DNA of 64,000 nt from Vulcanimicrobiota bacterium (GTDB lineage: Bacteria > Vulcanimicrobiota > Vulcanimicrobiia > Eremiobacterales > Eremiobacteraceae): positions 416,001 to 480,000 of the forward strand of contig CAWDVP010000006.1 of NCBI GenBank assembly GCA_963805945.1, read 5' to 3'. Position numbers and translations under genes: made by a program. Below are positions 3,889 through 50,736 of the stretch, piece by piece. The notes under the pieces are model-generated. The model made no database searches and was not told where the DNA came from. It was given only the letters and a program-made list of their open reading frames with translations. Numbering within the stretch: position 1 is the first letter of the stretch; every line of letters begins with the position of its first letter.

Positions 3889-5491
3889 TCCTAAAGACGC
3901 CGAACTTCGTCGGCGTGCGCGGCGCGTTCGCCGCCGCCGCGATGCCCAACGCCAGCACCTGGCGCGTATCCGCCGGATCGATGATGCCATCATCCCAAAG
4001 CCGCGCGGTGCTGTAGTAGGGATTGCCTTCGGCCTCGTACCGCTCGAGGATGGGCCGCATGAATTCCTCGCGCTCGGCCGCGGACATGCTCTTGCCCTTC
4101 GCTTCGAGCGCTTCGAGACGCACGGTGAGCAGCACGTTGGCGGCCTGCGGGCCGCCCATCACCGAGATGCGCGCGTTCGGCCACATCCAGAGCTGCCGCG
4201 GCGAATACGCGCGACCGCACATGCCGTAGTTGCCGGCGCCGAACGAACCGCCGATGATCACCGTGAACTTCGGCACTTGCGCGTTGGCGACCGCCATGAC
4301 CAGCTTCGCGCCGTCTTTGGCGATGCCGCCCTCCTCGTATTGCTTGCCCACCATGAAGCCGGTGATGTTCTGCAAGAAGACCAGCGGCACGCCGCGCTGG
4401 CAGCACAGCTCGATGAAGTGGGTCCCTTTGAGCGCGCTTTGCGAGAAGAGGATGCCGTTGTTGGCGAGGATGCCGACCGGCTGGCCTTCGATGTGCGCGA
4501 ATCCGCAGACCAGCGTCTCGCCGTAGAGCGCCTTGAACTCGTGGAACTCGCTCGCGTCGACGAGCCGCGCGATGACTTCGCGCACCTCATACGGCTTGCG
4601 CCAATCGCGCTGGACGACGCCGTACAGCTCCTGTGCGTCGTATTTCGGCGGCCGCGGCTCGCGGACGCGCCACGGCGCGCGCGTGCGGCGGTTGAGATTC
4701 GCGACGATCTCGCGGCAGATCGCCAGCGCATGGCGATCGTCGAGCGCATAGTGGTCGGTGACGCCGGAGATGCGCGCATGCACGTCTGCGCCGCCGAGCT
4801 CCTCGGCGCTCACGATCTCGCCGGTCGCGGCCTTGACGAGCGGCGGGCCGCCGAGAAAGATCGTGCCCTGGCCCTTCACGATGATCGACTCGTCGGACAT
4901 CGCGGGGACATACGCGCCGCCCGCCGTGCACGAGCCCATCACCGCCGCGATCTGCGGGATGCCTTTCGCCGACATCTGCGCCTGGTTGTAGAAGATCCGG
5001 CCGAAGTGCTCGCGGTCGGGGAACACCTGGTCTTGCAGCGGCAAGAACGCGCCGCCCGAGTCGACCAGATAGATGCACGGCAGATGGTTCTGCTCGGCGA
5101 TCTCCTGCGCGCGCAGATGCTTCTTGACGGTGAGCGGGAAGTAGGTGCCGCCCTTGACGGTCGCGTCGTTGGCGACGATCACGCACATCGCGCCCTCGAC
5201 GACGCCCAGGCCGGTCACGATGCCCGCGCTCGGCGCATCGCCGTCGTACATATCCCACGCGGCGAGCGCCGAAAACTCGAGGAACGGCGACTGCGGGTCG
5301 AGCAGCAGGGCGATGCGTTCGCGCACCGGCAGCTTGCCGCGCGCGGTGTGCTTCGCCATCGCCTCGGAGCCGCCGCCCGCGGCGACGTGCGCCTGCCGCT
5401 CGCGCAGCTGCTCGAGCAGCGACACGAAATGCTCGCGATTCTTCGCGAACTCCGGATGCGAGGTATCGACCCGCGATTCTATGACGGCCAT
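3884..5491 (-). CDS. liuB: 3-methylcrotonyl-CoA carboxylase beta subunit (carboxyltransferase)
   Basis: [37 protein letters not shown], ends FGVFRM; start trimmed to MAVIESRVD at 5491. Confidence 0.93.
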
Positions 5492-10028: not shown

Positions 10029-10571
10029 TCATTCCGTCGCGTCGTTCGTCAGATCCGCCATGCGCGGCACGCTCTTGGGATACGAGCCGGCCGGATGTGC
10101 CCGCATCCACAGCTTTCCTCTTACGGCTATGTATTCGAAATTCTCGTAGACCGATGGACCGTTGACCTCGCGCATGAGCTTGACGCTCGGCCAGACAAGC
10201 TCCCACATCGTCGACACCTGCCAGGACGTGGTGTCCATCAGAGCCGCCTCGTCGATCAATCCGTACTTGAGAAACGATCCGATCTGCTCCCACCAATCGC
10301 ACACGTGCAGTTCAAGATGGACGTGCCGGTCGGCATGGCCGTAGTCAGCGCGGAACTGCGGATCTTTCATCCGCTCGGCGAGGTCACGCCGGACGAAGCT
10401 TATGTACTCTTGCAACTGCGGATCTTTCCATTGTTCCAGGATGGCGAGCAGCGCCGCGAGCTGGTTGCTCGCCCGCAGGTGGCGCAATTGGATCAGTGCC
10501 GCGATCGCAGTGGTGGAGATCACAGCGAGCGTGCCGATAGCCGCGAATGCGGTGAGCGCCTCGTAGCTCAT
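10029..10571 (-). CDS. DUF4760-like single-TM protein (array copy 4)
   Basis: MSYEALTAFAAIGT...QLRHLRASNQ, DWWEQIG, YENFEY, HPAGSYP; ATGA overlap with upstream copy. Confidence 0.82.
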   Translation of the reverse strand: MSYEALTAFAAIGTLAVISTTAIAALIQLRHLRASNQLAALLAILEQWKDPQLQEYISFVRRDLAERMKDPQFRADYGHADRHVHLELHVCDWWEQIGSFLKYGLIDEAALMDTTSWQVSTMWELVWPSVKLMREVNGPSVYENFEYIAVRGKLWMRAHPAGSYPKSVPRMADLTNDATE

Positions 10572-11137
10572 CCGGAGCCGTCGCCGCGTGCCATGAGATC
10601 GCGGGCCTTGAGCTGCGCCATGCGCGGCACGTTCGCCGGGTAATAGCCGTCCGGATGGTGCGACATCCAAAGCTTCGCCCGCACGGCGATGAACTCGAAG
10701 TTCTCGAAGGCAGCCGGACCGAACTGCTCTCGCATCGATCCGATAGCCGGTTCCAGGTCATCCCATGAGCGCACCACTTGCGGCGCGGCGATGTCGAGCC
10801 ACGACTGCTCGTCGATCAATGCGTACTTGGTGAACGACCCGATCTGCTCCCAATAGTCGGCGACCAACAGCTCCGGGTGATCTGCCCGCGAGACGCCGCG
10901 CTCCTGGAATTGCGCCAGGAACTTCGGGTCTTTGAACTTCTCCTGCAGGACGCCGCGCACGTATTGGATGTGGTTTTGCATATCGGGCGTATCCCACATC
11001 TGCATCAGCGTCAGCAGCACGTTGAGCTGGTTGCCGGAGCGCAAGTGGCGCAGCTGGACGACCGCGGCGATCGCCGTCGCGGCGATGACCGCGAAGGTCG
11101 CGCCCGCGAAGATCGTGTTCCAGAGCTCAAGGGACAT
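10568..11137 (-). CDS. DUF4760-like single-TM protein (array copy 3)
   Basis: MSLELWNTIF...QLRHLRSGNQ, DYWEQIG, FENFEF, HPDGYYP. Confidence 0.82.
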   Translation of the reverse strand: MSLELWNTIFAGATFAVIAATAIAAVVQLRHLRSGNQLNVLLTLMQMWDTPDMQNHIQYVRGVLQEKFKDPKFLAQFQERGVSRADHPELLVADYWEQIGSFTKYALIDEQSWLDIAAPQVVRSWDDLEPAIGSMREQFGPAAFENFEFIAVRAKLWMSHHPDGYYPANVPRMAQLKARDLMARGDGSG

Positions 11138-11693
11138 CCGGCGCGACGTCCTCCGGATAGGGATCGATCACGGGCAGGCGCGGCGCATCCTTGGGAAACG
11201 TGTCCGGGTGTTTCGCCTCCCAAATGATCGCGCGCGACACGGTGTACTCGAAGTTGTCGTACGCCGTCGGCCCCCGCTTGCGACGGATGATGGCGATCAC
11301 GGGCATCATCCTGTTCCACGCGGCGATCGCCGTGAAACCGCCGCTTTCCATGAAGGCCCGTTCCTCGGTGTAGCCCAACTTGAGCATCCCGCCGAGCGAC
11401 TCCCAAAAGTCGATGTACGAGACTTCCGGATGCGCGATGCGATCGATCGGCGCGCGCATCAGCCCGGCGCGATATTCCGGGTCCTCGAGCCTCTTCTCGA
11501 CCTCGCCGCTGAAGACGTACGCTTGGAGCTTTCTCGCTTCGGGGCCAGCCCATTTGTCGAACAGACCCAAGGTGGCGCTGATCTGATTACCCGCTCGCAT
11601 GTGCCGGAGCTGGATGACCGCCGCGATCGCAGACGCCGCGATCACGACGAGCGTGCCGAAGGTCGAAAGCGCGGAGATCTCTTCCCAATTCAT
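11127..11693 (-). CDS. DUF4760-like single-TM protein (array copy 2)
   Basis: Start MNWEEISALS at 11693 (ATGA overlap); QLRHMRAGNQ, DFWESLG, YDNFEY, HPDTFP. Confidence 0.82.
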   Translation of the reverse strand: MNWEEISALSTFGTLVVIAASAIAAVIQLRHMRAGNQISATLGLFDKWAGPEARKLQAYVFSGEVEKRLEDPEYRAGLMRAPIDRIAHPEVSYIDFWESLGGMLKLGYTEERAFMESGGFTAIAAWNRMMPVIAIIRRKRGPTAYDNFEYTVSRAIIWEAKHPDTFPKDAPRLPVIDPYPEDVAPDVP

Positions 11694-12271
11694 GCGTGCG
11701 GCGCTCCCGCGCCGTGTGTTGCGGCATCGCTCACCTCCGGCAACGGCAGCCGCTCCATGTGTTTTGGAAATGCGCCGCCGGGGTGCCGGCGGCCGAAATC
11801 GCGGCTGCGAATCGCGAGATATTCGAAGTTCTCCCACAACGCCGGTCCGCTTAGGCTGCTCCTGCGCATCAACGCGATCGTCATGCCGAGACGATCCCAG
11901 TCGGCGCTCACCACCCCTCCGGCGAGGTCGAGAAACGGATCTGCTTGGATCAAACCATACTTGACCAGGGTGCCTACCTGCTCCCACCAGGTGATGATGC
12001 GCACCTCGGGATGCACGGACCAATCGTTGGCCGACGTGTCAAGGGAGCGTGCATAGCCGGGATCCTTGAACCTATCGGCGAGCCCCACACGCACCTGGTG
12101 GGCGGCTGCGCGCATCTCGGCGCCATCCCACATCTCGTTGAGCTTGAGCATCGCCTGCAGCTGATTGCTCGCCTGCAGGTGGCGCAACTGGATCAACGCT
12201 GCCACTGCAGTGGCGGCGATCACGACGAACGTGCCGACCGCTGCGAGGGTGCCTATCAACTCCAGCGACAT
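11690..12271 (-). CDS. DUF4760-like single-TM protein (array copy 1)
   Basis: MSLELIGTLAA...QLRHLQASNQ, WWEQVG, WENFEY, HPGGAFP; own RBS GGAGAG. Confidence 0.82.
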   Translation of the reverse strand: MSLELIGTLAAVGTFVVIAATAVAALIQLRHLQASNQLQAMLKLNEMWDGAEMRAAAHQVRVGLADRFKDPGYARSLDTSANDWSVHPEVRIITWWEQVGTLVKYGLIQADPFLDLAGGVVSADWDRLGMTIALMRRSSLSGPALWENFEYLAIRSRDFGRRHPGGAFPKHMERLPLPEVSDAATHGAGAPHA

Positions 12272-12358: not shown

Positions 12359-14857
12359 CTATGGACCGGATTGTTTGAGTTCCGGCTCCGGCGCCGGCGG
12401 CTTGAGCGGCTCGCCGATCTTGCGGAACACGGGCTTGCCGTCTTCGGCGTCGAGCAGGATGTGATCGCCGAGCTTGAACGTGCCGCGCAGCAGCTCTTCG
12501 GACAGCGGATCTTCCACCAGCCGGCCGATCGCGCGCCGCAGCGGCCGCGCGCCGAAGGCCGGATCCCAGCCTTCTTTGGCGATGAGTTCGCGCGCCGCTT
12601 CGGTCGCCTCGAGCGTCATGTGCTGGTTCTCCAGCTCCTTGACGACCTTGGCGAGCTCGAGCGTGACGATCTGCTTGATCTCGTCGACGTCGAGCGGATG
12701 GAAGACGACGACCTCGTCCACGCGGTTGAGGAACTCGGGCCGGAAGATGTGCTTGATCTCTTCCAGTATCTTGTTCTTCATCCGCTCGTAGCGGACCGCG
12801 GCCGAGCCTTCTTCTTTCACCGGGCGGAAGCCGATGTCGGAGTTCTTCTGCAGCCCGATCGCGCCGATGTTGCTCGTCATGACGATGAGCGTGTTCTTGA
12901 AGTCGACCGCCCGGCCTTGCGAGTCGGTGAGCCGGCCGTCTTCGAGCACCTGCAGCAGCAGGTTGAACACGTCCGGATGCGCCTTCTCGATCTCGTCGAG
13001 CAGCACGACCGTGTACGGCCGGCGCCGCACCGCTTCGGTGAGCTGGCCGCCCTCTTCGTAGCCGACGTAGCCGGGAGGCGCGCCGACCAGCCGCGACACC
13101 GCGTACTTCTCCATGTACTCGGACATGTCGATGCGCACCATCGACTCCGGATCGTCGAACATGAACTCTGCGAGCGTGCGCGCGAGCTCGGTCTTGCCGA
13201 CGCCCGTCGGACCGAGGAAGATGAACGAACCGATCGGCCGTTTGGGGTTCTTCAACCCCGCGCGCGCGCGCCGGATGGCGCGCGAGATGACCTTGATCGC
13301 CTCGTCCTGGCCGACGATGCGCTTGTGCAGCACGTCGCCCATGTTGAGCAGTTTGGCGGTCTCTTCTTCTTTGAGCTTGCTGACCGGGATGCGCGTCCAG
13401 GTGGAGACGATGTGCGCGATCTCCTCGGGCCCGACCGAGTTGGTCTTCTCGCCCTTGAGGTTGCGCTTTTCGACCCACTCTGCTTCCATCTGGGCCTTCT
13501 TGGCGCGCAGCTTTTCCTCGCGGTCGCGGATCTGCGCCGCGCGTTCGAATTCTTGCGCCTTGATGGCCGCTTCTTTCTCCGCCTTGACCTTGCGGATCTC
13601 GGTCTCGACGTCGCGGATCTCCGGCGGCAGTGAAGTGGACTGCAGCCGCACGCGCGAGGCCGCCTCGTCCATGAGGTCGACCGCCTTGTCGGGCAGGAAG
13701 CGATCGGAGATGTAGCGCGCGGACAGCCGTGCCGCCGCCTCGAGCGCTTCGTCGGTGATCTTGACGCGGTGATGCGCCTCGTAGCGGTCGCGCAGGCCTT
13801 TGAGGATTTCGACGGTCTCCTCGACCGACGGTTCGCCGACCATGATCGACTGGAAGCGGCGCTCGAGCGCCGAGTCCTTCTCGATGTGCTTGCGGAACTC
13901 GTTGAGCGTGGTCGCGCCGATGCACTGCAGCTCGCCGCGCGCGAGCGCCGGCTTGATGATGTTGCTCGCGTCGATCGCGCCTTCGGCGGCGCCCGCACCG
14001 ACAAGCGTGTGCAGCTCGTCGATGAACAGGATGATCTCGCCGCTCGCGCCGCGGATCTCGTCCATGACGCGCTTCATGCGCTCTTCGAACTCGCCGCGGT
14101 ACTTGGTGCCGGCCACCAGGCCCGCAAGGTCCAGCGTGATGACGCGGCGGTCGCGCAGCAGCTCAGGCACATCGCCGGCGATGACGCGCTGCGCCAGGCC
14201 TTCCGCGATGGCCGTCTTGCCGACGCCGGGTTCGCCGATGAGCGCCGGGTTGTTCTTGGTGCGCCGCGAGAGGATCTGCACGACCCGCTCGATCTCGGTG
14301 TTGCGGCCGATGACCGGATCGAGTTTGCCTTCGCGCGCCAGTTGGGTCAGGTCGCGGCCGTAGGCGTCGAGCGTCGGCGTCTTGCTCTTGCCCTTCGACG
14401 CGGTCTGCGTCTGGGTCTCGGCGCCGAGCAGCGACGTCGTCTGCACGCGCACCTTCGCCGGGTCGACGCCCAGGTTGGTGAGCACGCGCGCGGCGACGCC
14501 CTCGCCCTCGCGGATGAGGCCGAGCAGCAGATGCTCCGTGCCGATATAGTTGTGATTGAGCTGGCGCGCTTCTTCGAACGCGAGCTCGATGACCCGCTTC
14601 GCGCGGGGGGTGAACACCATCTCCTGCTGCACGGTCTGACCACCGCGCCCGACGATCGCCTCAACTTCGGCGCGGACCTTCGCCAGGTTGACTCCTAGAG
14701 TTTCCAACACTTTGGCGGCAAGGCTCTCGCCTTCGCTGATGATGCCGAGCAGGATGTGTTCCGTTCCTATGTAGTTGTTGCCGAGGCGCTGGGCTTCTTC
14801 TTGCGCCAGCACGATGCTGCGGCGCGCGCGCTCGGTGAACGGCTCCCACATTGACAT
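12359..14857 (-). CDS. clpC: ATP-dependent Clp protease ATP-binding subunit ClpC
   Basis: Double Clp-N repeats (YIGTEH), Walker A GEPGVGKT and GPTGVGKT, short UVR-type middle domain, IGF loop; start MSMWEPF. Confidence 0.95.
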
Positions 14858-14886
14858 TTGTTCTTCTCGTTCTCCCCCTATAGTCG

Positions 14887-14906
14887 TGCCCGAACGAAGC
14901 TCGGGC
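14887..14906 (+). repeat. Degenerate REP-like palindrome just upstream of the clpC RBS
   Basis: TG-CCCGAAC-GAA-GCTCGGG, one mismatch to the 6616 class; GTAG head degenerate. Confidence 0.55.
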
Positions 14907-14991
14907 CCGAGTACGTCCGTATGTTCGACGCCGCCCGGCAAATCCGCTTCTTCCTAAACGTATTGCTAGGTCACATCGTTTGGCGGGAAAT

Positions 14992-15022
14992 GAAGAGGGG
15001 TGCAGCTCCGGCTGCCCCCTCT
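14992..15022 (-). terminator. Terminator/attenuator-like hairpin in the clpC upstream region
   Basis: Minus AGAGGGGGCAGC-CGGA-GCTGCACCCCTCT then TCATTT (weak U tract). Confidence 0.5.
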
Positions 15023-15046
15023 CCGTATGATCGACGTATCGATTGC

Positions 15047-15230
15047 AGGCCCCAAGAGTGCTCGGTCTTCGCTGCACTGGTGCCCGCTCTTGCGAGCGGG
15101 AGTCGCATCGGCTTTCGCTGGATCGGGCGATGCCCAATCGCTACGCCCGGGTTACGCAATCCGGATGCGAGTCGGTGCTCACGCCGCTCGCTCGCCGATC
15201 AGTGCGCTGTAGAGCGGCCCCTTGAGGCTT
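15047..15230 (-). ncRNA. Candidate multi-helix structured RNA (family not recognised)
   Basis: 5' GCCUCAAGGG pairs with 3' CUCUUGGGGC; nested GCUC/GAGC, GCACUG/CAGUGC, UCGCAUC/GAUGCGA, GAUUGGGC/GCCCGAUC, CCCGCUC-GCAA-GAGCGGG; begins ~7 nt after a -10 box. Confidence 0.6.
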
Positions 15231-15236
15231 ACCCGC

Positions 15237-15265
15237 ATGATACGCCCGAGGTCCGGCAGTGTCAA
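15237..15265 (-). promoter_or_regulatory. Sigma70-type promoter
   Basis: Minus TTGACA-17 nt-TATCAT. Confidence 0.8.
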
Positions 15266-15308
15266 GGCGAACGCCGGAGAAGTTTTCTCGTTCCGCGAAT
15301 GTTTGCGT

Positions 15309-16796
15309 ATGACGGAATCCGGCCACAGCGTCGCCATCGGCCTCGGCTCGAATCTCGGTGATCGGCAAGGCAATCTCACCGGGGCGCTGCAGCGCTTGAG
15401 GAAAGTTATCCACATCCGAAGCGTCTCGCCTGTGTATGAGACGACGCCGGTCGGCTATACCGATCAGCCCGATTTCCTCAATCTCGTGTGCAACGGCACA
15501 ACCGCGCTCTCGCCGCACGACCTGAGCGCCGCGCTTTCGGACATCGAGCGCCGCGTCGGCCGCACGCCCTCATTCCCCATGGGACCGCGCACGATCGACC
15601 TCGACCTCTTGCTGTACGACGATCTCGTCCTGCGCGAGCCGGCGCTCACCATCCCGCATCCGCGCATGACTGCGCGCGCGTTCGTGCTCATCCCGCTGCG
15701 GGATATCGCGCCGGATCTCATCGAGCCGGTGTCGCGCCGCAGCGTCCGCGAGCTCGCCGCCGCGATCGACCCCGCGGGCATGCGGCGTCTGGAAGGCGGT
15801 CTGCTCGCGCGCTTCCGCCGCGACGTCCAGGAGCAGCGTCCGCAGGTGCCCCTCTCGCTCGATCGGGCGGGCGTCACCGGCGTGAAGACGACCGTCTCGC
15901 TCTCTTTGCCTGCGGGCCGGCAGCAGGCGATCGCGACGCTCGACATCTTCGCCGATCTCGACGCGCGGCACAGCGGCGTGCACATGTCGCGCTTCTCCCA
16001 AGACCTCGAAGATGCGCTCGCCGGGCTTTCGGCCGACGCCCAGGTCGGCGGCGAGTCGCTGGCGCTGCTGCTCGCGCAGCGCGTGGTGGAGAGCCAGCGC
16101 GCGGCGATCGCACGTGTCGAGCTGCGCGCCGAGTTCTCGCTGCCGCGTCACACGCCGGCGAGCGGCATCGCGACCAGCGAGTACTACACCATGCTGGCGA
16201 AGGCGGTGGCAGGCGCCGGGTTCGCGCGCAGCTGCGTCGGCGTCGAAGCAGAGGGCATCACCGCCTGCCCGTGCGCGCAGTCGATGGTGGCGGAAGCCGC
16301 TCGCGACCGCCTCGCCGGCGAGGGTTTCTCGGGCGAGCAGATCGAGCGGATCTTGCGCAGCATGCCGATCGCGACGCACAACCAGCGCGGCCGCGGCACG
16401 CTGCTCATCGGCGGCTCGCTGCCCGTGGATCTCGCCGGCATGGTGGAGATCGTGGAGCAGTCGATGTCGTCGGAGACGTATGACCTGCTCAAACGGCCGG
16501 ATGAGCTCTTCGTGGTCAACAAGGCGCACGCCGCGCCGCGCTTCGTCGAAGACGTCGTGCGAGAGATGCTGCGCTACGCGCACGACGCGCTCGCGGGCGC
16601 CCCCGACGATGCGTTCGTGCTGGCCCGTCAGGTGAACTACGAGAGCATCCACAAGCACGACGCGGTGGCCGAATCGAGCGCGCTCGTGGGCGAGCTGCGC
16701 CGCGAGCTGGCCGGCGCCACGGGGGTGACGCATACGACTCTCGAAGAGTGGCTTCACCCGCGAGACTCCGCGGCGTATGTAGGGCCCGAGCTTTAG
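15309..16796 (+). CDS. folK: Fusion: HPPK (FolK) + GTP cyclohydrolase FolE2/MptA family
   Basis: N-terminal IGLGSNLGDR, QPDFLN, GPRTIDLDLL, IPHPRM..RAFVL; C-terminal DVQE, GVHMSRF, TACPCA, THNQRG, LLKRPDE, FVEDVVR, ESIHKH. Confidence 0.9.
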   Translation: MTESGHSVAIGLGSNLGDRQGNLTGALQRLRKVIHIRSVSPVYETTPVGYTDQPDFLNLVCNGTTALSPHDLSAALSDIERRVGRTPSFPMGPRTIDLDLLLYDDLVLREPALTIPHPRMTARAFVLIPLRDIAPDLIEPVSRRSVRELAAAIDPAGMRRLEGGLLARFRRDVQEQRPQVPLSLDRAGVTGVKTTVSLSLPAGRQQAIATLDIFADLDARHSGVHMSRFSQDLEDALAGLSADAQVGGESLALLLAQRVVESQRAAIARVELRAEFSLPRHTPASGIATSEYYTMLAKAVAGAGFARSCVGVEAEGITACPCAQSMVAEAARDRLAGEGFSGEQIERILRSMPIATHNQRGRGTLLIGGSLPVDLAGMVEIVEQSMSSETYDLLKRPDELFVVNKAHAAPRFVEDVVREMLRYAHDALAGAPDDAFVLARQVNYESIHKHDAVAESSALVGELRRELAGATGVTHTTLEEWLHPRDSAAYVGPEL

Positions 16797-20727: not shown

Positions 20728-20936
20728 AGATCATCGAGATCACGCCGGCGGCCACGCCGGATGAGGCGGCCGCGATCGAGGCGGCCTTGAAGCTTATCAG
20801 CGGTCGAATGAATTCGACCGCTACAGGCAGCGCACGCGTATGGAGCGGTCGAGTTTACTCGACCGACCCGAGCGATGACCGCGCTCTCACGTGGCGCGAA
20901 GAGGCGCGGCGCGAAGCGGTCGATGCCGGCGTTTAA
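20724..20936 (+). CDS. Small acyl-CoA carboxylase epsilon subunit-like protein (70 aa)
   Basis: TTG start overlapping pccB stop (TTGA); [13 protein letters not shown]...WREEARREA resembles AccE/PccE-type subunits; stop overlaps next start. Confidence 0.65.
20801..20865. repeat. Head-to-head REP doublet inside the epsilon-like ORF
   Basis: Minus TGTAG-CGGTCGAA-TTCA-TTCGACCG (20801-20825) and plus TGGAG-CGGTCGAG-TTTA-CTCGACCG (20841-20865). Confidence 0.8.
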
Positions 20937-24325: not shown

Positions 24326-24739
24326 GTGGACCGGCCGATCGATCACGTGGCGCTGGTGGTGCGCGATCTCGACGCGAGCGCCGCGGTCTATCGGACGCTC
24401 GGGTTCACACAACGCTACCGCGAGCGCGTCGAGGATCAAGGCGTCGACATCATCGGCATGAGCGCCGGCGATTCCACCATCGAACTGCTCAAGCCGCTGC
24501 AGCCGGACTCGCCGCTCGTGCGCTTCTTGGGCGACAAACCGTCGAAGCTCCATCACATCGCATACCGGGTGCCCGACATCGAGGTTGAGCTCGCGCGGCT
24601 CAAGGCGCAGGGCACGCGTCTCATCGACGAACGGCCGCGGCGCGGCGCGCACGGCAACCTCATCGCCTTCATCCACCCGAGCGCGACGGACGGCGCGCTC
24701 GTCGAGGTCTGCCAGCAAGGAATTCCCGATGTCGCTTGA
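24326..24739 (+). CDS. mce: Methylmalonyl-CoA epimerase
   Basis: IDHVALVV, EDQGV, IELL, LHHIAYRV, GAHG..IAFIHP, LVE. Confidence 0.9.
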   Translation: MDRPIDHVALVVRDLDASAAVYRTLGFTQRYRERVEDQGVDIIGMSAGDSTIELLKPLQPDSPLVRFLGDKPSKLHHIAYRVPDIEVELARLKAQGTRLIDERPRRGAHGNLIAFIHPSATDGALVEVCQQGIPDVA

Positions 24740-25271
24740 GGCCTGGAGCCTCGCCGCGTCGGCCGGCACGTTCCTCGTCATCGCGGCGACCGCGATCGCG
24801 GCGATCGTGCAGCTGCGCCACATGCGCAGCAGCAACCAGATCACCGCGCTCTCCAAGCTCGAGGAGATGTGGGATGATCCCGACTTCACCATCGCTCGGC
24901 GGCGCGTGGCGACGGAGCTCGACGAGCGCCTCAAAGATCCGCTGTTCCGGGCCAAGGTCGCCTCTGAGGTGCCGACCGACGAGCTGGTCCGCGCGCTCAA
25001 CGACGTGTGCAACTTCTACGAGACGATGGGCGTGTACGTCAAGCACGGCCTTGCCGACGTCGACGTCGTGTGCGATTTCTGGTCCGCCATCGTCAGCCAG
25101 ACATGGACACGGCTGAAGCCCGCGATCGCCCTCGCCCGGCAAGGGTCGATGGGTGATCAGCTGTGGGAGAATTTCGAATACATGGTCATCGTCACCCAGC
25201 GTTACCTCGCGAAGCACCCACGGACGTTTCCCCGCGGCATGGAGCGCCTACCGCTCGACGACGCGCAGTGA
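24729..25271 (+). CDS. DUF4760-like single-TM protein (paralog 6)
   Basis: MSLEAWSLAASAGTFLVIAATAIAAIVQLRHMRSSNQ, NFYETMG, WENFEY, HPRTFP; 11-nt overlap with mce. Confidence 0.82.
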   Translation: MSLEAWSLAASAGTFLVIAATAIAAIVQLRHMRSSNQITALSKLEEMWDDPDFTIARRRVATELDERLKDPLFRAKVASEVPTDELVRALNDVCNFYETMGVYVKHGLADVDVVCDFWSAIVSQTWTRLKPAIALARQGSMGDQLWENFEYMVIVTQRYLAKHPRTFPRGMERLPLDDAQ

Positions 25272-30177: not shown

Positions 30178-30224
30178 CGTCAGGGCGGCATGAACGCTAT
30201 ACGTGGTCGATGCCCTCCGATATG

Positions 30225-30301
30225 GTAAGGGCCGACCTTTAGGTCGGCCCCACGGTGGTCTCCTTCAGAGTGTTTGCGGTCGAGTGAACTCGACCGCTCC
30301 A
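30225..30301. repeat. Inverted REP doublet between SBP and livH
   Basis: Plus GTAA-GGGCCGACC-TTTA-GGTCGGCCC (30225-30250); minus TGGAG-CGGTCGAG-TTCA-CTCGACCG (30277-30301). Confidence 0.78.
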
Positions 30302-30317
30302 CCCCAGGCCGCCGGGC

Positions 30318-33436: not shown

Positions 33437-33444
33437 GCGACGTA

Positions 33445-33516
33445 TGTAGGGGTCGATCTTCAGATCGACCCTCCCTGGACCACGACGAAGGGACGACCGA
33501 AAGGTTGTCCCTTACA
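33445..33516. repeat. Inverted REP doublet between convergent genes
   Basis: Plus TGTAG-GGGTCGATC-TTCA-GATCGACCC (33445-33471); minus TGTAA-GGGACAACC-TTTC-GGTCGTCCC (33490-33516) containing the murQ stop. Confidence 0.8.
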
Positions 33517-38321: not shown

Positions 38322-41027
38322 ATGAAGGACGGACCCTTGAAGCGCCTCACTCAACTCGTGACCATCGTCTCGATCGCCATCCTCGCCGCCGCTTTCCCGC
38401 CTTCGCGCGGCTGCGCCGATGCGGCACCCGGCGGCGACGCAACGGTCACTCGCGCGACCCTGCCGAACGGCCTGCGCGTCGTCATCGTGCGCAACTCGCT
38501 TGCGCCGGTCGTCAACGTGCAGGTCGTCTATCTCGCCGGCGCGGATGAGACCCCGCCGGGCTTTCCGGGCATGGCGCACGCGCAGGAGCACATGGCGTTC
38601 GCGCGCGGCATGACCGGGCTCACCGCGAACCAGCTGGCCGACATCGGCACCCTTATGGGCTCGTACGACAATGCGCAGACCGAGCAGACGCTCACGCGCT
38701 ACTTCTATGTCGTGCCGACCGAGGATCTCGGTTACGCGCTCAAGGTCTTCTCGATACAGATGCGCGGCGTGCTGGACGCCAACGACGAATGGGCGCAGGA
38801 ACGAGGCGCGATCGAGCAAGAGGTCGCCGCCGATCTTTCCAATCCGTTCTATCGTTTCTTCGCCGCCGCCCAGAACGATCTCTACGCAGGCACGCCGTAT
38901 GCGCACGACGCGCTCGGCACGCGTCCGTCCTTCGACAAGACGACCGGCGCGATGCTCAAGCAGTTCTACGACGCGTGGTACCACCCGAACAACGCGATCC
39001 TCTTCATCGTCGGCGATGTCGATCCGCAGCCGACGCTTGATTCGGTGAAGCAGCTCTTCGGCGCGATTCCGAGCCACGCGCTGCCGGCGCGGCCCGCGGT
39101 CCATCTGCAGCCGCTCAAGGCCAAGACGCTTACGCTGGACGGCGACCAGGGATTCGCCGTCGCGTTCGTCGGCTATCGTCTGCCGGGCATCAATGATAAG
39201 GATTTCGCCGCATCGCAGATCCTCGGCGATGTCCTTGCGAGCCAGCGCGGCGATCTCTATGCGCTCGGGCCGCAAGGCAAGGCCTTGCAGGCCGGCTACT
39301 TCCCGGTCACGTCGCTGCCCAAGGCGAGCACGGGCATCGTCTATGCCGCGCTGCCTCCAGGAGCGGACACCAAGGGCATGGCCGACACGCTCAAGAGCGT
39401 CATCGCCGACTATCAGAAGAACGGCGTACCAACCGACCTCGTCGCGGCGGCGCAGCGTCGCGTCGTCGCACAAGCGCAGTTCCGCCGAAATTCCATCAGC
39501 GGTCTCGCCGAGGCCTGGGTCAATGCGATCGCCATCGAAGGGCATGACTCGCCTGATGACAGCGTCGCAGCGCTCCAGCGGGTGACGGTCGACGACGTGA
39601 ACCGCGTGCTGCGGCGCTATTTCGTCAACGCGACCGCGCTCGTCGGCATCGTCAACCCGAAACCGGCCGGCAAGCCCGTCGCGTCGAAAGGTTTCGGCGG
39701 GGAGGAGTCGTTCGCACCGAAGGATGCCAAGGAGACGACGCTGCCCGACTGGGCGAAGGGCCTCGTGGCATCGATTGCAGTGCCGAAGTCGACCACCAAT
39801 CCGACGTCGTTCACACTGCCAAACGGCCTGCACATCATCGTGCAGCCCGAGCGCATCAGCCCCACCGTCACGGTCATCGGCCAGGTGAAGAACAACTCCG
39901 ATCTCCAGACCGCGCCGGGCAAAGACGGCGTCGATCAAGTGCTGGGCGGGCTGTTCACATACGGCACGACGACGCTCGACCGGCTGGCGTACCGCAAGGC
40001 TCTGGACGACATCGCCGCGCGAGCACAACCAGGTGCGAACTTCTCGCTCTCAGTGCTCTCGTCGGACTTCGATCGCGGCGTCCAGCTGCTCGCCGACGGC
40101 GTGCTCCACCCCGCGCTGCCCGCGCCGGCTTTTGCGATCGTGCAGAAACAGACCGCGGGCGCTCTCGCGGGGCAGTTGGAGAGCCCGGATTATCTCGCCG
40201 TGATCGCGCTCGTCAAAGCGCTCTACCCACCGACCGATCCTCAACAACGCTGGCCTTCGGTCGCCAGCGTGAACGCGCTGACGCTTGACGACGCGAAGGC
40301 GTACTACACGACGGTGTTCCGGCCCGACGTCACGACGATCGTCGTCATCGGCGACGTGACGCCCGACGGCGCGAAAGCGACGATCGAGCGTTGGTTCGGC
40401 ACATGGACGGCCAGCGGTCCGGCGCCGCAGACCGAATATCCGCCGGCGCCGAACAACGGGCCGTCCGCTGCAAGCGTGCCAGCGACCGGGGTAGTGCAAG
40501 ATTCGGTGACGCTGCAAGAGACCATCGGTTTGCTGCGATCAGATCCGGACTACTACGCGATGAACGTCGCCAGCTCGATCCTAGGCGGCGGGTTCTACGC
40601 CTCGCGGTTGTCGATCGATCTGCGTCAAAAAGCAGGCTTGGTCTATTCCGTCGGCTCCGAAGCAGATATCGGCAAGACCCGCAGTTCGTTCGCGATCTAC
40701 TACGGCTGCGATCCGCCGAAGGTCTCGCAGGCGCGCGCGCTCATCGAGCGCGACCTGCGCGACATGCAGACCGCGGTGCCCACGGCCAACGAGCTGCAGC
40801 GCTCGAAGGTCCAACTGCTCGCGGATATCCCGCTAAGCGAGCAGAGCGAGAACAGCATCGCGGGTGGCCTGCTGGAGCGAGCCCTGCTCGGCTTGCCGCT
40901 CGATGAGCCCCAGATCGCCGGCAACCACTACGCCGCGATGACCGGCGAGCAGGTGCGCGATGTGATGGCGAAGTGGGTCCGGGTGCCGGACTTCGTGCAA
41001 ATCGTGACCGGACCGCCGCCCCAATAG
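38322..41027 (+). CDS. M16 family zinc peptidase (pitrilysin-like), secreted
   Basis: Signal peptide; TLPNGL twice; HAQEH (HxxEH); WYHPNNA; start may be TTG 38337. Confidence 0.88.
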   Translation: MKDGPLKRLTQLVTIVSIAILAAAFPPSRGCADAAPGGDATVTRATLPNGLRVVIVRNSLAPVVNVQVVYLAGADETPPGFPGMAHAQEHMAFARGMTGLTANQLADIGTLMGSYDNAQTEQTLTRYFYVVPTEDLGYALKVFSIQMRGVLDANDEWAQERGAIEQEVAADLSNPFYRFFAAAQNDLYAGTPYAHDALGTRPSFDKTTGAMLKQFYDAWYHPNNAILFIVGDVDPQPTLDSVKQLFGAIPSHALPARPAVHLQPLKAKTLTLDGDQGFAVAFVGYRLPGINDKDFAASQILGDVLASQRGDLYALGPQGKALQAGYFPVTSLPKASTGIVYAALPPGADTKGMADTLKSVIADYQKNGVPTDLVAAAQRRVVAQAQFRRNSISGLAEAWVNAIAIEGHDSPDDSVAALQRVTVDDVNRVLRRYFVNATALVGIVNPKPAGKPVASKGFGGEESFAPKDAKETTLPDWAKGLVASIAVPKSTTNPTSFTLPNGLHIIVQPERISPTVTVIGQVKNNSDLQTAPGKDGVDQVLGGLFTYGTTTLDRLAYRKALDDIAARAQPGANFSLSVLSSDFDRGVQLLADGVLHPALPAPAFAIVQKQTAGALAGQLESPDYLAVIALVKALYPPTDPQQRWPSVASVNALTLDDAKAYYTTVFRPDVTTIVVIGDVTPDGAKATIERWFGTWTASGPAPQTEYPPAPNNGPSAASVPATGVVQDSVTLQETIGLLRSDPDYYAMNVASSILGGGFYASRLSIDLRQKAGLVYSVGSEADIGKTRSSFAIYYGCDPPKVSQARALIERDLRDMQTAVPTANELQRSKVQLLADIPLSEQSENSIAGGLLERALLGLPLDEPQIAGNHYAAMTGEQVRDVMAKWVRVPDFVQIVTGPPPQ

Positions 41028-41041
41028 CCCTGCGCCACATA

Positions 41042-41068
41042 TGTAGGGGCCGATCTTTAGATCGGCCC
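41042..41068 (+). repeat. REP-like palindrome
   Basis: TGTAG-GGGCCGATC-TTTA-GATCGGCCC; identical to 50710-50736 on the minus strand. Confidence 0.82.
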
Positions 41069-50675: not shown

Positions 50676-50736
50676 GGCCGATCTGAAGATCGGCCCCTAC
50701 CTTGCTCGAGGGCCGATCTAAAGATCGGCCCCTACA
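50675..50736 (-). repeat. Tandem direct REP doublet between convergent genes
   Basis: Minus GTAG-GGGCCGATC-TT(T/C)A-GATCGGCCC at 50710-50736 and 50675-50700. Confidence 0.85.

Follow-up and report, generated by a model that had tools for sequence, protein, structure and literature searches.

A conserved, structured RNA candidate that begins at a strong promoter upstream of clpC in a Vulcanimicrobiota bacterium

INTRODUCTION

What is made from the 451-nucleotide (nt) gap that separates the divergent genes clpC and folK in a Vulcanimicrobiota bacterium? The gap lies in a 64,000-nt stretch of contig CAWDVP010000006.1 (assembly GCA_963805945.1, positions 416,001 to 480,000), which we call the window, and it holds a promoter followed by a structured element on the minus strand, the strand of clpC. 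An earlier note on this DNA had read the element either as a stand-alone structured RNA or as a switch controlling read-through into clpC. The analysis described here bears out a structured, non-coding element upstream of clpC, whereas the specific switch that had been drawn fails on energetic grounds. We conclude that, very probably, a structured RNA is encoded on the minus strand of the gap with a strong promoter at its start, and that both the RNA and the promoter are conserved. The function of this RNA is a separate matter, for which our preferred reading is a tentative one: a small RNA of a new structured type, made from a promoter of its own and ending at a leaky 3′ hairpin past which some transcription continues into clpC.

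RESULTS

A strong promoter precedes a multi-helix RNA core

The element begins with a sigma-70-type promoter of the form TTGACA-17-TATCAT on the minus strand (positions 15265-15237), which matches the consensus at 11 of 12 positions. The −35 hexamer TTGACA occupies positions 15260..15265, and the −10 hexamer TATCAT, after a 17-nt spacer, occupies positions 15237..15242. When both strands of the 64 kilobases (kb) were scanned, no other site reached 11/12, and two others reached 10/12. Within positions 14000-16500 one sigma-70 site was found, compared with 0.2 expected. The promoter is present as the earlier note had described it, and it is the best of the 64 kb. It would start minus-strand transcription near position 15230, the predicted start site. 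The first helix of the RNA, P1, follows the −10 hexamer at a distance of 8 nt.

The first 180 nt of such a transcript (15049..15228, minus) would fold into a well-defined multi-helix domain with a minimum free energy (MFE) of −92 kcal/mol, and the MFE and centroid folds computed for positions 15232-15045 agree. The parts of this core are P1, a P1 extension, P2a, P2b, and the hairpins H1, H2, H3, and H5. P1 is a 10-pair duplex between GCCUCAAGGG (15219..15228, minus) and CUCUUGGGGC (15049..15058, minus) that includes two G·U pairs. Its existence, and the fact that both of these pairs become A·C on the plus strand, had been pointed out in the earlier note and are confirmed. P1 is extended by 2+2+3 pairs (P1 plus extension, ~19 base pairs [bp]) and is followed by P2a and P2b. 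The 5′ strand of P2a (GC + GCACUG; 15200..15207, minus) pairs with positions 15079-15071. Together, P1, the P1 extension, and P2 make up a long terminal helix in which the 5′ end of the RNA is paired with positions 15079-15049.

Inside the terminal helix, a three-way junction bears the GCAA hairpin H5 and a four-way junction bears H1 to H3. H5 (CCCGCUC-GCAA-GAGCGGG; 15083..15100, minus) carries a GNRA loop and has a pair probability of ~0.99. H3 occupies positions 15116..15145, H2 occupies positions 15146..15165 and has the form UCCGG-(AUUGCGUAAC)-CCGGG with a 10-nt loop, and H1, which is the variable part of the inner junction, occupies positions 15167..15191 (all minus). Every nested helix that had been listed previously can be found where it was placed. 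GCACUG/CAGUGC, CCCGCUC-GCAA-GAGCGGG, the AUCGA-UACG-UCGAU hairpin, and the hairpin at 15024-14992 are all part of the MFE fold, each with pair probabilities close to 0.99, whereas the inner helix UCGCAUC/GAUGCGA is absent from it and lies 3.8 kcal/mol above the MFE.

Fold statistics favor the minus strand

The predicted structure is more stable than shuffled sequences would lead one to expect. The MFE z-score is −4.5 when 251 nt are folded and −3.6 when the 188-nt core is folded alone, and in each case none of 200 dinucleotide shuffles folded as well. Measured against the window's own segments after adjustment for composition, the MFE of the core ranks 30/2716 (z −2.79, top 1%), a favorable position though not an extreme one; the window has several other intergenic hairpin regions that fold better, and this weighs against a fold beyond chance. 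The minus-strand ensemble is sharply defined, with a mean base-pair distance of 9.8 (rank 9/1162), in contrast to the diffuse plus-strand ensemble, for which the corresponding values are 54.1 and 840/1162.

Other comparisons also distinguish the strands. The composition-adjusted z-score is −2.79 on the minus strand versus −1.62 on the plus strand, and mirroring the minus-strand structure onto the plus strand costs 3.8 kcal/mol. Only on the minus strand do the loops have GNRA and UNCG sequences. The count of G·U pairs does not decide the matter, since there are six in the minus-strand MFE fold and nine in the plus-strand MFE fold. Taken together, the promoter, the sharp ensemble, the adjusted z-score, and the mirroring loss point to the minus strand.

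The element matches no known RNA family

The whole window was searched with Rfam 15 (4227 models, among them those for 6S, raiA, riboswitches, T-box, signal recognition particle, RNase P, and transfer-messenger RNA), and no match was found at gathering scores. When expectation values (E) up to 10 were allowed on segments of 1001 nt and 266 nt, the only match was to CRISPR-DR9, at 15.8 bits compared with a gathering score of 45. This resemblance is an 18-nt hairpin match at H5 and is noise. No transfer RNA or transfer-messenger RNA (tmRNA) was found in the window by ARAGORN. The earlier note had reported no tmRNA, signal recognition particle, RNase P, T-box, or cobalamin signature and had named an Rfam search as a check; these results agree with it.

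Searches for further copies were likewise negative. Plasmid and phage collections hold no similar DNA, and a blastn comparison of the intergenic region with the window and 80 clpC loci returned only the self match. A single-sequence covariance model (R1) built from the window sequence and its MFE structure scores 231.9 bits against itself, and over 781,681 bases from 81 sources its next best score is 16.3 bits (E 0.68). With no second copy in the window, a miniature inverted-repeat transposable element (MITE) or other repeat element was rejected. No Rfam 15 family was found in 14 clpC loci of other lineages, and a full-text literature search, as judged from its listings, turned up no published account of such an RNA.

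A relative retains the core and the promoter

Relatives were sought in two ways. By searching genome contigs with ClpC we obtained a list of 80 clpC loci. Among the matches listed, only two ClpC proteins come from the same phylum, those of loci L001 (80% identity) and L002 (69%, lacking the 5′ end), which belong to metagenome-assembled genomes labeled Eremiobacteraeota and Vulcanimicrobiota. The remaining listed matches have no more than 64% identity and come from other phyla.

In the second approach, protein databases were searched with open reading frames (ORFs) covering the region, and the degenerate back-translations of the matches were aligned to the window. This was done because gene callers sometimes translate non-coding DNA in GC-rich genomes. 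An extended folK ORF recovered four relatives, each with a fusion of HPPK to FolE2. One of these, P0002, has been called with an upstream extension, MIRLDPRSVKARS..., for which the window equivalent is MIRPRSGSVKANA.... In these translations MI corresponds to ATGATA, the reverse complement of the −10 hexamer, and SVK (of which VK is the part retained throughout) to that of the −35 hexamer. P0002 keeps both, with the same spacing, and the residues between them differ.

A 167-amino acid (aa) plus-strand ORF over the gap gave 68 candidates in a homologue search, none of which scored. When it was compared with protein representatives, it matched P0127, a 177-aa "protein." (The second match, P0126, is unrelated and of low complexity and was rejected.) P0127 is a spurious antisense ORF of another organism that spans the clpC start, leader, core, and promoter. 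Its beginning is the antisense of the clpC start and has 10 residues in common with the window's own antisense ORF; because this clpC-start sequence differs from that of both the window and L001, the organism is neither of these. P0127 matches the window over nt 15047-15223, which is the core, with 33/59 residues identical. On its promoter side, ...TAMILWRRRGVKRR..., MI and VK occur again with equal spacing, and the hexamer spacer is 17 nt as counted by hand (our script printed 18). Judged on translated sequence, then, the hexamers and their spacing are compatible with the promoter in two other organisms.

The order and spacing of the parts are equal in the P0127 organism and the window. The distance from the −10 hexamer to P1 is 8 nt in both, P1 spans 173 nt from its 5′ end to its 3′ end (180 nt in the window), and the 3′ end of P1 lies 219 nt from the clpC start codon (191 nt in the window). 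Identity at determined positions is highest in the core (80/93, 86%) and falls to 62% (24/39) in the region of the UNCG and terminator-like hairpins, which is essentially unalignable. The promoter side has 72% identity (36/50), and the proximal leader has 79% (52/66) with 28 gap columns.

In a curated alignment, in which the block LADQ(C/Y)A(V/L)ER was held in frame, 57 of the 67 MFE pairs have no forced change, six fall in gaps, and none is impossible. Three pairs have a one-sided change that keeps the pair (including G15220·U15057 to A-U), and one, C15204-G15075 in P2a, has a compensatory change to U-A. Permuting the differences among positions with the same base yields a mean of 5.4 impossible pairs, and only 7 of 5000 permutations did as well as the observed arrangement (46 of 5000 for the plain alignment). 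Forced differences fall at 7/127 paired positions versus 11/52 unpaired positions (p 0.004).

The relative is compatible with the 3′ arm of P1 at 10/10 positions, and with the H2 stem and most of its loop, in which C15156 is replaced by U. Most of its indels (1–3 nt) affect the upper portions of three hairpins (H1, H3, and H5), and each strand of the P1 extension has one. H5 is 2 nt shorter, and H3 lacks positions 15133-15132 and 15128, so that both arms of its stem are cut short at the top. H1 has a 3-nt deletion (15188-15186) and several forced differences. Either model of the inner junction may hold; there is one impossible pair among the pairs found only in the alternative and none among those found only in the MFE fold.

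The same indels bear on coding potential. They are not all multiples of three, and this argues against a conserved protein or reading frame. The GC codon-phase spread of the core is 0.03; among 443 coding segments the lowest value is 0.09 and the median is 0.41. Four scanned ORFs lying within the intergenic region contain no Pfam family, and the leader holds no credible small leader-peptide ORF. A protein-coding small ORF was rejected on the basis of the missing codon periodicity, the lack of a Pfam match, and the 1- and 2-nt indels inside the core of the relative.

To the extent that translated sequence allows one to judge, these comparisons support retention of the core, together with its promoter, by at least one further organism. 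Conservation among relatives had been named in advance as a check, and the outcome is divided: the P0127 organism retains the element, and L001 lacks it upstream of clpC. The element is present upstream of clpC in two of three same-phylum clpC upstream regions (those of the window and the P0127 organism). It is not a universal clpC feature in the phylum.

The downstream leader holds hairpins and a repeated box, and no workable switch

Beyond P1, the leader contains an AUCGA-UACG-UCGAU hairpin with a UNCG loop (15030..15043, minus), which is within the stretch that does not align with P0127, and then a GC-rich, terminator-like hairpin (14992..15024, minus) with 14 pairs and a stability of −26.9 kcal/mol. 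The latter had been presented previously as a terminator-like stem. It is indeed a strong GC-rich stem-loop, but its tail, AUUUCCC, is not a U-rich tract. In the P0127 organism the best candidate for an analogue is a weak 7-bp hairpin that lies 33 nt beyond P1 and has RUURUU 5 nt farther on; the sequence there is too permissive for this to count as evidence. The terminator of clpC itself (12319-12294), which has a T7 tail, was called by the terminator scan, so the organism does use canonical terminators.

It had also been suggested that GGGGCCUGCA could alternatively pair with UGCACCCC in the terminator stem. Such a pairing can be drawn. Forcing it gives −91.9 kcal/mol versus −120.4 kcal/mol for the fold with P1 and the terminator hairpin, a cost of 28.5 kcal/mol, and on this basis the antiterminator switch was rejected. 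In folds of the growing chain, P1 closes once its 3′ arm exists. With its extension, P1 is long for a switching helix, and 27 nt and a separate hairpin lie between it and the terminator-like hairpin. Given the energy cost and the early closure of P1, we find no mutually exclusive terminator and antiterminator that share P1 nucleotides.

The leader also contains a 15-nt direct repeat. Copy 1, CGTCGATCATACGGA, is at 15022..15036 (minus) and is not recognizable in the P0127 relative. Copy 2, CGTCGAACATACGGA, is at 14916..14930 (minus), which is 59–73 nt upstream of the clpC ATG. The copies are 106 nt apart and identical at 14/15 positions, and each lies directly 5′ of a GC-rich hairpin. A comparable pair of repeats arose in 1 of 300 shuffles of the intergenic region. 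The window has no further copy with two or fewer mismatches, and the 80 loci have no exact copy. The core of copy 2, GTCGAACAT (14929-14921, minus), is compatible with the P0127 sequence and corresponds to "VEH" in the upstream extension of a ClpC relative, P0097. This box, ~60–70 nt upstream of the clpC start, is apparently kept in two other organisms, and the rest of the proximal leader varies. A conserved box at this location suggests that clpC may have control sequences of its own; GTCGAACAT could be part of an alternative-sigma clpC promoter, or an operator.

DISCUSSION

A small RNA, or a leader of clpC?

The explanation that we lean toward, tentatively, is that the product is a discrete small RNA of ~190–240 nt, abundant and structured, which would represent a new family. 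Its 3′ end would be formed at the GC-rich hairpin 15024-14992. Because the U tail of this hairpin is poor, termination would probably be leaky and some transcripts would continue into clpC. The folded domain would most likely act through a bound partner, which might be a protein, RNA polymerase, or a ligand, rather than by alternative pairing. This assignment draws on the strength of the promoter, the helix that joins the ends of the RNA, the spacer and extra hairpin, the lack of a workable switch, and the signs that clpC has its own control, and it remains less than firm. Stable bacterial RNAs are usually laid out with a long helix joining the ends, then a small hairpin, and then a GC-rich hairpin. 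The candidate also has much in common with orphan structured RNAs such as raiA, OLE, and similar motifs, which are structured bacterial RNAs of unknown function that emerged from comparative genomics. Like RNAs of this class, it is a promoter-linked, ~180-nt, multi-junction non-coding fold of limited lineage with GNRA- and UNCG-type loops. It differs from them in having no Rfam 15 match and only two known carriers, and in its position directly upstream of clpC.

Several observations weigh against an independent small RNA, or against the strength of the case for it. The RNA lies directly upstream of clpC and in the same orientation in both carriers (191 and 219 nt), which is exactly what a cis-acting leader predicts. 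In the 64-kb scan of both strands, the stretch separating the RNA from clpC yielded no sigma-70-like promoter; this lack of a second promoter fits a clpC leader as well as a separate RNA gene. (The short clpC upstream region of L001 has no sigma-70-like match either.) The hairpin at 15024-14992 fails the U-tract rule, with no call in the terminator scan, and its sequence is not conserved in P0127. P1 alone is at chance, with equal duplex energy in 132 of 1000 shuffles and at 683 of 1312 genomic placements. L001 has a different gene upstream of clpC and a ~165-nt intergenic region with no similarity to the element. Finally, the comparison is with one homologue known through translation only, which leaves about one third of its bases ambiguous, and the alignment depends in part on judgment. 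The plain alignment shifts a 2-nt indel and turns C15204-G15075 into one broken pair, and the compensatory change is not significant by itself (one or more arose in 1433 of 5000 permutations).

It is possible, and nearly as likely as a small RNA, that the transcript is a cis-acting clpC leader. In such a leader the core would be the sensor (aptamer-like, or bound by a protein or RNA polymerase), the variable stretch would be the expression platform, and read-through would be under control of the kind seen in riboswitches, attenuators, or processive-antitermination elements. The position and orientation of the element in both carriers favor this interpretation, as do the lack of another sigma-70-like promoter for clpC, the weak and probably leaky U tail, and the 15-nt box that is repeated immediately 5′ of both leader hairpins. 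Riboswitches have a conserved aptamer followed by a variable expression platform, and the element presents the same pattern: a conserved, P1-closed 5′ domain (86%), a non-conserved stretch with a GC-rich hairpin (62%), and one gene on the same strand. Attenuating riboswitch leaders nevertheless differ from the element, which has a P1 of ~19 bp that forms on transcription in growing-chain folds, no workable antiterminator (the sole mutually exclusive pairing that was proposed carries the 28.5 kcal/mol cost), and 27 nt plus a separate hairpin between P1 and the terminator-like hairpin. A P1-closed core is kept in one relative (80/93); no ligand pocket or known aptamer was recognized in it. No Rfam 15 riboswitch or leader family matches. 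A single gene gives no ligand or gene-set logic, and L001 regulates clpC without the element. Phage HK022 put and Bacillus EAR, which are cis-acting antitermination RNAs at the 5′ ends of operons, offer a functional analogy only, in that each places structure at the very beginning of a transcript, ahead of terminator-like hairpins and a gene. The narrower proposition that the core is the sensor of a new cis-regulatory RNA class (a riboswitch, or a leader bound by RNA polymerase or another protein) that sets transcription into clpC is a doubtful one, which we regard as somewhat unlikely.

Could the fold have no function as RNA structure at all? The transcript might simply be a long clpC 5′ untranslated region or the result of divergent firing from folK, with the structure a by-product of high GC content or the conservation acting at the level of DNA. 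The composition-adjusted rank of the core, which is only in the top 1% of the window (30/2716), the chance-level stability of P1 alone, the lone and non-significant compensatory change, and the lack of the element in L001 would all be accommodated. We consider this improbable, since the core is conserved and the flanking leader is not, differences avoid paired positions (7/127 vs. 11/52), and zero or one pair is broken versus 5.4 expected. The H3 deletion takes the top of the stem off both arms, the minus-strand ensemble ranks 9/1162, and the distance from promoter to P1 is kept at 8 nt.

Two further possibilities are most unlikely. One is that the element is a plus-strand 5′ leader of folK-folE2, such as a folate- or pterin-related riboswitch. 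The plus strand folds well too (z −3.8), the element is 80 nt upstream of the folK ATG, and the P0002 organism keeps the promoter region beside folK-folE2. However, there is no plus-strand promoter-like site upstream of the element, either in the promoter scan or in our own 64-kb scan, and the Rfam THF and ZTP models match neither strand. The strand comparisons given above, namely the diffuse plus-strand ensemble (54.1, rank 840/1162), the adjusted z-score of only −1.62, the 3.8 kcal/mol mirroring loss, the change of the P1 G·U pairs to A·C, and the restriction of the GNRA and UNCG loops to the minus strand, also speak against it. The other is that the RNA is the divergent form that 6S RNA takes in this phylum, or some other RNA polymerase-binding global regulator. 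The element resembles 6S RNA in its size of ~180 nt, its strong promoter, and its ends joined in a long closing helix, and 6S genes are often co-transcribed with the downstream gene and in some bacteria lie near folate genes, as could hold here. Yet no 6S model matches even at E up to 10 on 266 nt, and 6S RNA is a rod with a closing stem, a central bubble, and a terminal stem, whereas both the MFE and the centroid folds have a branched interior with three-way and four-way junctions and no large central bubble. A rod-like helix formed by GCGAGCGG/CCGCUCGC is 3.9 kcal/mol worse, and its 5′ strand has a 3-nt deletion in the P0127 relative, so the rod alternative is not kept there. The earlier note's remark that the fold is more branched than a 6S rod is in keeping with these findings.

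Neighboring genes and other features of the window

The gene clpC (12359..14857, minus; ATG at 14857, stop at 12359) encodes 832 aa by translation, with 80% identity to L001 ClpC. Its ribosome-binding site, GGGGGAG, is at 14878-14872 (minus), and in the full-leader fold a hairpin forms just 5′ of this site (14888..14906, minus). A GC-rich hairpin also stands just before the ribosome-binding site of L001 clpC (L001 positions 3975-3991), with a sequence unrelated to that at 14906-14888. The best hairpin candidate in the P0127 organism, as seen in degenerate back-translation, is likewise just before the clpC ribosome-binding site. Directly downstream of clpC are two or three DUF4760 paralogues. 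The members of this group in the window are at 10568-11137 (minus), 11690-12271 (minus), and 24585-25271 (plus), and there is an overlapping ORF at 11127-12023 (minus).

The label of a clpC-folK intergenic region used in the earlier note is right, with the additions that folK is on the plus strand, divergent from clpC, and is fused to folE2. The fusion gene (15309..16796, plus; ATG at 15309) encodes a single 495-aa protein in which HPPK (PF01288, 1.5e-38) is joined to a FolE2-type GTP cyclohydrolase (PF02649, 1.7e-60). The same HPPK-FolE2 fusion is carried by four protein-database relatives (P0002–P0005).

Elsewhere in the window there is a family of palindromic hairpins with the core CGATCT-NN-AGATCG and flanks of G/C runs (e.g., GGGGTCGATCTTCAGATCGACCC). 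Sites are located at 33454-33467, 41051-41064, 50679-50692, and 50714-50727, with near matches at 39899 and 48880, for a count of six matches with one or no mismatch versus 0.51 expected. Three of these hairpins are in the convergent-gene gaps 33437-33511 and 50676-50736, where predicted folding is stronger than anywhere else in the window. They look like REP-like (repetitive extragenic palindromic) elements or terminators without U tracts. Two same-strand intergenic gaps, 20728-20874 and 30178-30317, fold more strongly than the element upstream of clpC. The former, between genes for a carboxyltransferase and a biotin carboxylase, has two hairpins with a GGTCGA...TCGACC core and may instead hide a small coding gene.

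Implications

The homologue used here came from a protein database, as the product of a gene-calling program that had treated the RNA region of a relative as coding. Records of this type can be an alternative source of comparative data for structured RNAs.

If the candidate is real, it would represent a new structured RNA family from a phylum of which very few members have been cultured. Its start is unusually clear, with the best promoter of the 64 kb followed 8 nt later by P1, and it is physically tied to clpC. To our knowledge, clpC regulation in other bacteria relies on DNA-binding repressors and not on RNA. The element is thus a candidate either for an abundant RNA of unknown function or for RNA-based control of proteostasis. 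If the core should prove to be a sensor, then the main protein-quality-control unfoldase of Eremiobacterota would be tied to a small-molecule or protein signal.

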